Assembly (NCBI RefSeq): GCF_003334405.1 | Contig: NZ_QOWM01000029.1 | Source of the DNA: Escherichia coli | GTDB lineage: Bacteria; Pseudomonadota; Gammaproteobacteria; Enterobacterales; Enterobacteriaceae | Reading direction: 5' to 3' (one strand) | Length of the DNA stretch: 27,599 nt | Shown here: positions 6,429 through 9,075 of the stretch, piece after piece | Position numbering within the stretch: position 1 is the first letter of the stretch | Layout of the letters: every line of letters starts with the position of its first letter | Position numbers and translations under genes: made by a program | The notes under the pieces: model-generated | The model's database searches: none | What the model was told of the DNA's origin: nothing | Seen by the model: the letters and a program-made list of their open reading frames with translations, nothing else

Positions 6429-6564
6429 TTCATAAATTATAATTATGAATTGTGATTTATTCTATAAAAAAGAGACCACTGCAATATGTGATCTCTTGTA
6501 TGCAAGGGTGCTTAAACAGTATGAATTCAGAAGTGTGATTTCATAAGTTATAACTTCTTGATTA
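6429..6564. promoter_or_regulatory. Candidate second centromere-like repeat region (parC2-like) downstream of parB
   Basis: AT-rich intergenic DNA with repeated TGAATTGTGATTT / GTGTGATTTCATAAGTT motifs that recur in the parA-parM intergenic region. Confidence 0.35.
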
Positions 6565-6840
6565 TTACGTTAGTGTTTTTAAGTATTGCTCAAGGGCTAC
6601 TCTGACGATGGCACTTACATTTTTTGGATCTTTACCATTGCGTTTATTCCTCAATGCCAGATCTTCTATTGTGACAAGCATGCTTTCACCAAGAGAGATT
6701 GTCGTCCGACATTGTTTTTCTGGTTCGGGTTTTTCCGGCGCGCCGTATGGTTTATCCGCAAGGCGCTGTGCCAGAGCCTCTGCTTGTTCTACCGTAACTG
6801 CAGCTCTGTTTAATGCTTGCTGGCTGGGTTTCTTCACCAT
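6565..6840 (-). CDS. parB: Partition protein ParB (small DNA-binding centromere-binding protein of a type Ib par locus)
   Basis: 91-aa ORF whose start overlaps the parA stop (operon coupling). Size and arrangement match the pB171 par2 ParB as recalled from the literature. Confidence 0.65.
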   Translation of the reverse strand: MVKKPSQQALNRAAVTVEQAEALAQRLADKPYGAPEKPEPEKQCRTTISLGESMLVTIEDLALRNKRNGKDPKNVSAIVRVALEQYLKTLT

Positions 6841-7478
6841 GGGCCAAATACCTCATTCATTAAATGTTCAATTTCTGCTCTGGCTGCTGTATTGTTCGTT
6901 TCAACTACACCGGTGCCGTTGCTCATGCAATCGCGATAGACTTTTCTGAAACAAATAACTGAATCCAGGACTTGAATTGTTGGGAATTCTTCAAGATATT
7001 CAAGGAATTCTTTTCTCTCATTTCCCCTCAAAACCGGGTTGGTTGTTGCCATACTTTGTAAACAATAAACCTTAAGTTCCGGGTTAAGGTTACGCATTGC
7101 GTCTATCTGTTGTTCTAGTTCTGTAAGAGTATCCAGATCTGGTTGAGAACACTGTAGTGGCGCAATTATTTGATGTGCGACAACTCCACTCGTTATGAAT
7201 TCCTTTGAGTTTCTTCCTGCGACATCCACTATTACATCATCGAACTTTTCATTCAGAGCCTGTAATGTTTGTGTCAGGTTATCAAATTTCTCAACAAGGG
7301 TTATTGCTGGTAACAGTCCTGCAGCTTCTCGTTCCGCATGATGTTTTGCGGCAGTTCGTTGTAGATCTCCGTTTAACAGGCAGACTTCCCTTCCTTTATT
7401 TGCGAGAGCAATAGCCAGGTTTGATGCAATGGTAGTTTTCCCTGAACCACCTTTGTTCCCACCAACTACAGTAATCAT
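6834..7478 (-). CDS. parA: Partition ATPase ParA (Walker-type, small type Ib)
   Basis: 214-aa protein beginning MITVVGGNKGGSGKTT (deviant Walker A motif of the ParA/MinD family). Confidence 0.9.
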   Translation of the reverse strand: MITVVGGNKGGSGKTTIASNLAIALANKGREVCLLNGDLQRTAAKHHAEREAAGLLPAITLVEKFDNLTQTLQALNEKFDDVIVDVAGRNSKEFITSGVVAHQIIAPLQCSQPDLDTLTELEQQIDAMRNLNPELKVYCLQSMATTNPVLRGNERKEFLEYLEEFPTIQVLDSVICFRKVYRDCMSNGTGVVETNNTAARAEIEHLMNEVFGPW

Positions 7479-7706
7479 TACAACCTCATAAATGTGATGT
7501 GTGAAGTATGATGATATTTTGACACGGTAACCTGGGGTGTCAATATGTGTTCATATTTATGAAGTATGAAATATGAAGTGTGTCATATGATATAATAAAT
7601 AACACTTGTGTTTTATGATTTCATAACTATGATAGTTCTCAAATTGAGTATTACCTTGCAACCAGAAACAGTGATTTACTCAGATTGAGTATTTAAGGGG
7701 TTATAG
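7479..7706. promoter_or_regulatory. Divergent promoter / centromere-like repeat region (parC) between parA and parM
   Basis: 228-bp AT-rich spacer between divergently transcribed parA and parM, with multiple short direct repeats (GAAGTATGA, ATGAAGTGTG, TGATTTCATAACTATGAT). Confidence 0.6.
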
Positions 7707-8678
7707 ATGAACGTATACTGCGATGATGGTTCAACAACAATCAAGTTGGCATGGAATGACAATGGGAAAATCTGTAAGTCGTTGTCTCAAAACTCATTTC
7801 GTCATGGATGGAAGGTTGACGGGTTAGGGATTCGCCAGACATTTAACTATGAACTGGATGGTAAGAAATACACGTATGATGAAGTTAGCAACCAATCTAT
7901 TCTTACGACTCATATTGAGTATCAATATACGGATGTTAACCTGTTAGCTGTGCATCACGCTTTACTGAATAGTGGATTAGCTCCTCAGCCTGTATCATTG
8001 ACTGTGACTTTGCCTATCAGTGAGTTCTACACGAAAGAGTGTCAAAAAAATGAACTCAACATTCAGCGTAAAATTGAGAATTTAATGAGGCCGATTCGTC
8101 TTAATAAAGGCGATGTTTTCACCATTGAACACGTTGATGTGATGCCTGAATCATTGCCAGCTGTGTTTTCTCGTCTGATCATGGATAAAGTTGGTCAATT
8201 CGAAAAATCGCTGGTAGTTGATATTGGCGGCACTACGCTTGATGTTGGTGTTATCGTTGGTCAATTTGACTCTGTAAGTGCCATTCATGGTAATTCTGGC
8301 ATTGGTGTGTCTTCAGTTACGAAAGCTGCAATGAGTGCATTGCGCATGGCATCCAGTGATACCAGTTTCCTCGTTGCAGATGAATTGATTAAACGTCGTA
8401 ATGACCCGGACTTTGTTCGGCAGGTTATAAATGACGAAACAAAAACTGATCTGGTCCTTAATACCATTGAGGGGGCTATTGCCAGTCTGGGGGAGCAAGT
8501 AGTCAATGAGCTCGGTGATTTTCATCATGTGAATCGTGTTTATGTTGTCGGTGGTGGGGCCCCGTTGATCTATGATTCGATAAAAACGGCATGGCACCAT
8601 CTTGGGCAAAAAGTAGTGATGATGGAGTCGCCACAGACAGCACTGGTTGAAGCTATCGCGGCTTTCAAAGAGGAGTAA
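7707..8678 (+). CDS. parM: Actin-like plasmid segregation ATPase ParM (StbA)
   Basis: 323-aa protein beginning MNVYCDDGSTTIKLAW…, matching the ParM/StbA N-terminal phosphate-binding motif (DDGSTNIKL in R1 ParM) and size. Confidence 0.9.
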   Translation: MNVYCDDGSTTIKLAWNDNGKICKSLSQNSFRHGWKVDGLGIRQTFNYELDGKKYTYDEVSNQSILTTHIEYQYTDVNLLAVHHALLNSGLAPQPVSLTVTLPISEFYTKECQKNELNIQRKIENLMRPIRLNKGDVFTIEHVDVMPESLPAVFSRLIMDKVGQFEKSLVVDIGGTTLDVGVIVGQFDSVSAIHGNSGIGVSSVTKAAMSALRMASSDTSFLVADELIKRRNDPDFVRQVINDETKTDLVLNTIEGAIASLGEQVVNELGDFHHVNRVYVVGGGAPLIYDSIKTAWHHLGQKVVMMESPQTALVEAIAAFKEE

Positions 8679-8682
8679 TATT

Positions 8683-9075
8683 GTGGACGATGAACGGAAA
8701 AGGAAAAAATTCACACTTTATCTGCATCCGGAAAAAGCTGCAGACTTTCAAACTTTGGAAGCGATAGAGTCCGTTCCGCGTTCTGAGCGTGGTGAGCTGT
8801 TCCGGAATGCATTTATTTCTGGAATGGCGTTACACCAACTTGATCCTCGCCTGCCTGTATTGCTGACTGCCATTTTGAGCGAGGAGTTTTCAGCAGATCA
8901 GGTTGTAACCTTACTCAGTCAGACGACAGGATGGAAGCCTTCTCAGGCCGATATCAGAGCTGTGTTGACTGAACTCGGTGCTTTGCAATCTGCTGAAAAA
9001 ATGCCTCCTTCTGCTACTGATTCGGTGCAGGAGGCAATGAATGATGTGCGCCTTAAAATGCAAAAATTATTCTGA
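8683..9075 (+). CDS. parR: ParR (StbB) centromere-binding adaptor
   Basis: Small ORF directly downstream of parM. Probable GTG start at 8683 preceded by GAGGAG and overlapping the parM stop; product begins (M)DDERKRKKFTLYLHPEKA. Confidence 0.7.
   Translation: MDDERKRKKFTLYLHPEKAADFQTLEAIESVPRSERGELFRNAFISGMALHQLDPRLPVLLTAILSEEFSADQVVTLLSQTTGWKPSQADIRAVLTELGALQSAEKMPPSATDSVQEAMNDVRLKMQKLF

Follow-up and report, generated by a model that had tools for sequence, protein, structure and literature searches.

Do two complete segregation systems that lie back to back on one small replicon form a single, jointly controlled locus of the kind known from plasmid pB171, and do both of them partition the plasmid that carries them? 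We asked this of the stretch 6429–9075 in contig NZ_QOWM01000029.1 of Escherichia coli (assembly GCF_003334405.1); the whole 27,599 nt of this contig are the window of the study, and coordinates refer to it unless another sequence is named. With a probability of roughly 0.93, 6404–9075 is an intact pB171-type double partition locus, in which a ParA/ParB system (par2) and a ParM/ParR system (par1) have one common control region. Loci of this kind are a textbook model for segregation by ParA gradients and ParM filaments, and the present copy differs from it only as a near-identical allele. The double locus of pB171 itself is said to have been described by Ebersbach and Gerdes in 2001 and by Ringgaard et al. 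in 2007.

Two divergent partition operons around one spacer

The list of open reading frames (ORFs) places the four genes as the first-pass annotation of this DNA had described them, with type Ib parAB and type II parMR transcribed divergently from either side of a 228-bp spacer (7479–7706). On the minus strand, 6565–7478 holds parB (6565–6840), encoding a type Ib centromere-binding protein of 91 aa, and parA (6834–7478), encoding a small Walker-type partition ATPase of 214 aa, the end of parA overlapping the start of parB within ATGGTGA. On the plus strand, 7707–9075 holds parM (stbA, 7707–8678), encoding an actin-like ATPase of 323 aa, and parR (stbB, 8683–9075), encoding a ribbon–helix–helix (RHH) adaptor of 130 aa from a GTG start that lies 4 nt past the parM stop with GAGGAG upstream. 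A TTG at 8647 was dropped as the parR start in favour of the GTG at 8683, because the crystal sequence of PDB 2JD3 has 130 residues. The spacer has a G+C content of 31%, compared with 50% for the whole window, and the stretch between the stop codon of the neighbouring recombinase and that of parB (6429–6564) has 27%. No frameshift, truncation or insertion sequence (IS) insertion was found within 6404–9075. Each of the four proteins is found with exactly this sequence in other public assemblies, and ∼1,400 plasmids carry the locus at ≥95% identity, from which we argue that its function has been maintained.

The type II proteins were assigned readily. ParM matches Pfam StbA_N (2.8e-64) and the ParM C-terminal family (6.4e-44) and aligns with R1 ParM structures over ∼294 residues (E 3.5e-76); its phosphate-binding motifs, DDGSTTIK and DIGGTTLD, are both intact. 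For ParR, Pfam gives a match to Plasmid_stab_B (1.6e-29), and the sequence is identical at 126/130 residues (97%, E 9.6e-79) to PDB 2JD3, which is the ParR of pB171 (PMC3074162), the four substitutions being F10Y, L101S, A104V and Q127K.

Direct comparison with pB171 covered this ParR sequence and the primer sites of parC2, the centromere site downstream of parB. With the primers FS36 and FS35, parC2 had been amplified from pGE2, a clone of pB171 par2 (PMC4270457); FS36 is found at 6404–6434 with 31/31 matches and FS35 at 6544–6582 on the minus strand with 37/39, and the fragment that restored full par2 function in that work (PMC4270457) therefore corresponds to 6404–6582. As in pB171, the same four genes diverge from a common parC1 spacer, parC2 lies downstream of parB, and the 3′-end of the same tyrosine recombinase adjoins parC2. 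Together, the ParR identity, the primer sites, the gene order, the common control region and the second array bear out the earlier suggestion of an arrangement like par1/par2 of pB171. As compared, the differences are allelic only (the four ParR substitutions and two mismatches under FS35), apart from the host, which is here a decayed 27.5-kb IncFII plasmid. pB171 is a 69-kb virulence plasmid of enteropathogenic E. coli.

Two centromere codes in the control region

The repeat unit of both non-coding regions is the pentamer TRTGA (as a hexamer, TRTGAW), which recurs on either strand in a 7-bp register. Counts of TRTGAW are 11 in 7479–7706 and 7 in 6429–6564, compared with 2.4 and 1.2 in first-order Markov resamples of the respective regions (P < 0.0002 and P = 0.0002); the motif was chosen after viewing both regions, which makes these P values somewhat optimistic, and the independent check is its conservation in two diverged loci, described below. 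The parC1 and parC2 regions are the two TRTGAW-densest 150-bp stretches in the whole window, the three arrays having TRTGA densities of 57, 49 and 73 per kb versus 4 per kb elsewhere (∼12–18-fold), and, among same-strand TRTGA spacings no longer than 42 bp, 15/19 are divisible by 7. A further link between the two regions is the 11-mer core TGATTTCATAA, of which the window has exactly two copies where 0.05 are expected, one at 6536–6546 in parC2 and one at 7616–7626 in parC1; the motif first quoted for this DNA, GTGTGATTTCATAAGTT, lies at 6533–6549. The description of a repeat-laden spacer with a related cluster downstream of parB thus holds on formal repeat analysis. Calling the repeats iteron units does not, as they are 7-bp-phased pentamer/hexamer boxes for ParB together with two separate boxes for ParR. 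The pB171 papers reportedly give hexamer counts of 17 and 18.

In parC1, array A (7486–7511) consists of TCATA (reverse) at 7486 followed in phase by AATGTGA, TGTGTGA and AGTATGA. It lies just downstream of the −10 element of a P2-like parAB promoter at 7516–7543 on the minus strand (TTGACA, 16 nt, TGtCAAAAT, an extended −10), which is an operator position for parAB. Array B (7551–7632) has ∼12 heptad slots in a single phase, with strong boxes at 7551 (reverse), 7558, 7565, 7572, 7586, 7614, 7621 (reverse) and 7628, and extends from upstream of the P2 −35 to across the P1-like promoter of parMR. We treat the latter (7606–7633, plus strand; TTGTGT, 16 nt, TATGAT), which is overlapped by ParB boxes, as a promoter candidate because its hexamers and spacing are identical in a diverged Enterobacter locus. 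In parC2, the proximal sub-array (6504–6564) has boxes at 6520, 6534 and 6541 (reverse) in one 7-bp phase and holds TGATTTCATAA, and the distal sub-array (6429–6469), which begins right after the integrase stop codon, carries in-phase TRTGA/TCAYA boxes at 6430 (reverse), 6444 and 6451, the intervening slots being degenerate. The two sub-arrays are divided by a terminator-like hairpin with a T-run (6470–6497, minus strand), oriented for the leftward parAB transcript. In pB171, ParB arrays likewise lie on both sides of the operon, and the upstream one is regulatory (PMC7602700).

The ParR boxes are of a different kind. Two copies of CTCARATTGAGTATT lie just upstream of parM on the plus strand and nowhere else in the window: box 1 (CTCAAATTGAGTATT, 7638–7652), which is nearly palindromic, lies close to where the parMR transcript starts, and box 2 (CTCAGATTGAGTATT, 7679–7693), with which it shares the exact 10-mer ATTGAGTATT, lies 41 bp past box 1 and 14 bp ahead of the ATG of parM. 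That parM is preceded by two direct repeats for ParR has been described (PMC9426499).

Two diverged loci allowed us to ask which boxes accompany which proteins. In Enterobacter cloacae (OW967487.1, 2482–5010), the recombinase-parBA-parMR arrangement recurs at 71% DNA identity, with protein identities of 85% for ParB, 85% for ParA, 80% for ParM and 54% for ParR. Its spacer keeps both arrays, including the same four boxes of array A and an equivalent of array B at 3482–3566, as well as a parAB promoter (TTGACT-16-TGaCAAAAT) and, at the same position, the ParR-type boxes CTCAATCTGAGT and CTCAATTTGAGT, 40 bp apart. Four phased boxes lie between its parB stop and its terminator, whose hairpin has the same place and orientation, and 18/18 of its TRTGA spacings are multiples of 7. 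A plasmid of Aeromonas salmonicida carries parAB only, with a ParB that is 68% identical; TRTGA arrays lie on both sides of this operon at 7- and 14-bp spacing (20/20 multiples of 7), and ParR boxes are absent from the locus, which is without parMR. Because phased arrays flank parAB in both the Enterobacter locus and the parAB-only Aeromonas locus, the heptad boxes go with ParB, and by this comparison of sequences the 15-mers go with ParR. The spacer interleaves these two different centromere codes.

The ParR boxes of the Enterobacter locus differ in their central bases (CTCAATYTGAGT versus CTCARATTGAGT). The sequences suggest that the ParR/box pair co-diverges faster, perhaps escaping partition incompatibility.

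Predicted mechanism and the division of labour between the two systems

The par2 mechanism has been described for pB171: ParB binds the centromeres, and the plasmids are spaced by structures or gradients that ParA forms (PMC4270457). Carried over to the present allele, ParB dimers would bind the 7-bp-phased TRTGA boxes of parC1 (7486–7632) and parC2 (6429–6564), and the resulting ParB–DNA complexes would stimulate ATP hydrolysis by nucleoid-bound ParA, whose gradients or structures would move plasmid copies to equally spaced positions. In par1, ParR would bind the two CTCARATTGAGTATT boxes upstream of parM and cap growing ParM filaments, which would push sister plasmids apart. The positions of the boxes, with those of ParB over the parAB start region and the parMR promoter and those of ParR at the parMR start, imply autoregulation together with cross-repression by ParB: each adaptor would repress its own operon, ParB via the parAB start region and ParR at the start of the parMR transcript, and ParB would additionally repress parMR. 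Cross-repression of the parMR promoter P1 by ParB was reportedly found by Ringgaard et al. in 2007. For this allele, we infer binding, repression and stabilization from the pB171 work.

The question of which machine is at work on so small a replicon leads to the best surviving alternative, in which only one of the two systems partitions this plasmid and the other is a regulator, an incompatibility determinant or an inherited passenger. One system dominates in other dual-system plasmids such as SCP1 (PMC13245405), an IncI plasmid stayed stable after deletion of its par locus with other functions compensating (PMC7602700), and the heavy decay in the rest of the plasmid, where tra and umuC are remnants, makes relaxed selection conceivable. 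We nevertheless consider a single working system unlikely, though a real possibility, as none of the four ORFs, the two promoters or the two sets of boxes is damaged and the locus is 98–99% identical to copies on large conjugative plasmids.

The distal parC2 sub-array and the adjoining recombinase

The gene that adjoins parC2, and lies outside par, encodes a tyrosine recombinase (5685–6428, plus strand; the start annotated in relatives is at 5646). It is annotated in relatives as a site-specific integrase and gives XerD/XerC-type matches in NCBIfam with E 1e-21 to 1e-25, all under the curated cut-offs. Among PLSDB records, 989 have the recombinase end, parC2 and the parB end contiguous, and no class of PLSDB records with the parB side only was seen. 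A second class of plasmids, IncF and without parAB, matches 6300–6501 only. In these par-less plasmids, the recombinase is followed by the next 72 bp, with the distal boxes and the hairpin at ∼96% identity, and then by a colicin M immunity gene; the counterparts of 6430–6503 lie at 3001–3073 and 3001–3070 in two of their loci (L002 and L003), and homology stops just past the hairpin, at ∼6503. Such a breakpoint has the look of a recurrent boundary between modules, or of what remains of a lost par2.

We weighed whether the distal cluster (6429–6462) belongs to the recombinase, as a multimer-resolution site or 3′ flank, its likeness to ParB boxes being a coincidence of AT-rich DNA. The recurrence of these 72 bp beside the integrase in plasmids without parAB points that way, as does an inverted repeat within the segment (TTCATAA-N7-TTATGAA). 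Moreover, no array lies between the integrase and the terminator in the Enterobacter locus, and three strong boxes in 41 bp make for weak statistics. On the other hand, the distal boxes share one 7-bp phase and read ATTATGA/ATTGTGA like those of parC1, the functional pB171 parC2 fragment includes the distal stretch, the accompanying hairpin is oriented to terminate parAB and not the integrase, and most integrase homologues (the class matching 6300–6414, query positions 1–115) are without the segment. Ownership by the recombinase alone is accordingly improbable in our judgement. We favour the reading that the par-less plasmids are deletion or replacement derivatives that carry a relic of parC2, because of the hairpin orientation, the in-phase parC1-like boxes and the inclusion of the stretch in the functional pB171 fragment. 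The distal array is dispensable in at least one lineage, since the Enterobacter locus is without it. Still less probable than ownership by the recombinase is a dual role for 6429–6469, as a ParB array and at the same time a recombinase target or recombination hot spot; if true, it would couple multimer resolution to the partition complex and mark a point of par-module exchange between backbones.

Assignment of ParA and ParB

The best full-length family for ParA is ParA_partition (NCBIfam NF041546, E 1e-33, residues 7–209), and ParA further matches the PHROG family 'ParA-like partition protein' (E 4e-40) and, in a PDB sequence search, ParF and ParA structures. Its deviant Walker A motif NKGGSGKTT is intact (residues 8–16), and it has no helix–turn–helix domain at its N-terminus. 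The notion that this ATPase is a MipZ-type division-plane regulator and not a partition ParA, which draws on a Pfam MipZ match (E 5.7e-7) and on the product name 'division plane positioning ATPase MipZ' given by the Prokaryotic Genome Annotation Pipeline (PGAP) in >1,000 records, deserves next to no credence: the Pfam match is restricted to the P-loop (residues 2–52) and a weak piece at 64–126 of a model of 262 positions, the PDB MipZ match covers the P-loop only, the best full-length family is the one given above, the gene is translationally coupled to that of the putative RHH protein ParB and bordered by ParB-box arrays, and the pB171 ParA is a partition ATPase studied by experiment (PMC4270457). 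We take the MipZ name to be an annotation artefact, because the Pfam match covers no more than the P-loop.

For ParB, a putative RHH protein, we turned to its family. We collected 111 relatives, all on plasmid-like contigs of Enterobacterales and Aeromonas, and aligned 28 of them. In this alignment, the basic N-terminus (MVKKPSQQ) and a following helix are conserved, the linker is variable, and the C-terminus has an RTTISL strand and two helices. Across the aligned family, Pfam RHH_1 is matched at E ≤ 0.1 by 23/28 sequences and at E ≤ 0.001 by 7/28. The AlphaFold model of ParB (mean predicted local distance difference test score, pLDDT, 74) has C-terminal helices at 52–67 and 75–90, a two-helix half that is compatible with an RHH domain, and the ribbon strand is not formed in the monomer. 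Searched against the PDB, the 28-relative profile gave weak top matches only (E 0.06–0.3), to the RHH repressor CopG and to the EndoAI antitoxin, whose fold we also take to be RHH. ParB has no match in NCBIfam or PHROG, and its 90% sequence cluster includes an entry named 'Orf70 protein', an indirect hint of relation to pB171. The ParB of pB171 has been classed as an RHH protein (PMC2441792).

Several results count against the identification of 6404–9075 as a complete double partition locus. The ParA score of 116.6 falls short of the ParA_partition equivalog cut-off of 180 in NCBIfam. Taken by itself, ParB reaches Pfam RHH_1 at a marginal E of 0.0038, has no real match in the PDB by sequence, and has nothing significant in a Foldseek search of its model against the PDB (best E 1.4). 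The rightward parMR promoter was not called by the consensus scan and its −35 matches at 3/6 positions, which leaves it a putative one. Finally, the Enterobacter locus lacks the distal sub-array whereas plasmids without parAB retain it, making its role less certain. As for the repeats at large, the idea that they are chance features of AT-rich promoter DNA can be dismissed, since, although 6429–6564 and 7479–7706 have only 27–31% G+C and the motif was defined after inspection, TRTGAW counts exceed those of composition-matched resamples, the 7-bp phasing is strict, and two other genera have kept phased arrays although DNA identity has fallen to 70%.

Relation to other partition systems

The parC of plasmid R1 has ten 11-bp repeats flanking the promoter. 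Like R1 parMRC, par1 combines an actin-like ParM, an RHH ParR and an upstream centromere that doubles as operator; unlike R1 parMRC, it has just two ParR boxes, and its spacer is common to a second system. The minimum requirement of R1 ParR is two 11-bp repeats (PMC9426499).

The par2 system resembles TP228 parFGH, pSM19035 delta/omega and pESBL ParAB in its small Walker ParA, its small and putatively RHH ParB, and its short degenerate box arrays, which in pSM19035 and pESBL lie on both sides of the operon, as they do here (PMC7602700). ParB has no sequence similarity to ParG or omega that PDB sequence and profile searches could detect, and the boxes differ, being TRTGA heptads here, GATAACAA octamers in pESBL and tetramer boxes in parH. 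An identification of the locus with the IncI pESBL ParAB was rejected, since pESBL has those octamers and a different ParB of ∼100 aa (PMC7602700).

As here, two partition systems occur together on one enterobacterial plasmid in R27 and Shigella pINV, where both are functional (PMC13245405). R27 and pINV pair a type Ia system with another module at a separate locus, and the two are not known to have a centromere/operator in common.

The host plasmid

The contig appears to be a closed IncFII circle of 27,522 bp. This is supported by a 77-bp exact direct repeat at its ends (1–77 and 27523–27599), by the ORF of a PefC/AfrB-type fimbrial usher (25697–27599 to ∼730, minus strand) that runs through 851 continuous codons across the joined ends, and by an IncFII RepA gene (14936–15805, plus strand) whose product scores above the curated cut-off at 585–621 bits. 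The terminal overlap and the continuous usher ORF led us to reject the contig as an arbitrary fragment. A PefA-like subunit gene (634–1176, minus strand) lies beside the usher ORF.

The plasmid is a decayed F-like backbone with an untouched par module. Of an F-type transfer region it has only remnants, and it is therefore probably not self-transmissible: an internal fragment of traC lies at 10203–10862 (plus strand; profile positions 556–771 of 874) and one of traI, in the opposite orientation, at 11058–12131 (minus strand; profile positions 1120–1463 of 1623). Directly after parR, 9080–9394 (minus strand) encodes only the C-terminal end of umuC/impB, whereas IncI relatives such as the IncI-gamma/K1 plasmid pSTY1-1898 have an intact umuDC/dinI-like operon past parR. 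Relative to pSTY1-1898, a deletion of ∼1.8 kb has removed umuD, the DinI-like gene and all of umuC but this end, and there is a further deletion ahead of a DUF1281-like ORF (9548–10099).

Genes of an anaerobic sulfite reductase lie in 16906–21576, between IS1 (16906–17409, minus strand) and IS256-family (20749–21576, plus strand) transposases, with only the C-terminal half of asrA, a complete asrB and the C-terminal part of asrC. This asr fragment is unusual cargo for an E. coli plasmid and apparently chromosomal in origin. Elsewhere on the plasmid are an IS110-family transposase (2928–3989, plus strand) and a thermonuclease-like ORF (12800–13273, plus strand).

Prevalence and significance

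A search of PLSDB with the 2.6-kb locus gave matches in 1,565 records, 1,423 of them at ≥95% identity. Most carriers are conjugative plasmids from Escherichia, Salmonella and Klebsiella of IncI-gamma/K1, IncI1 or IncF type, and on IncI1, IncI-gamma, IncK and IncF plasmids (e.g. pSTY1-1898, NZ_CP014972.2) the module is 98–99.4% identical in DNA from the integrase through parMR. A 2026 survey found the combination of a type-I RHH-ParB system with a type-II system on 971 PLSDB plasmids and termed it previously reported (PMC13245405). The first-pass annotation had called two complete machines on a 27-kb replicon notable; it was apparently right about the size of the replicon, while the ∼1,400 PLSDB records and the 971 plasmids of the survey (PMC13245405) show that the combination is common. 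A plasmid of 27.5 kb is small for this module, but in other respects unremarkable.

In most records, PGAP gives ParA the MipZ name and calls ParB a 'hypothetical protein' or 'CopG family (transcriptional) regulator', names under which a survey by keyword would miss the partition system. Set beside the Enterobacter and Aeromonas loci, the sequence yields a clean definition of a ParB code (TRTGA at 7- or 14-bp spacing) and of a ParR code (CTCAnnTTGAGT, in two copies ∼40 bp apart), both of which could serve for automatic centromere annotation. Among resistance and virulence plasmids of IncI, IncK and IncF type, the recombinase-parC2-parBA-parC1-parMR arrangement is a widespread stability cassette.

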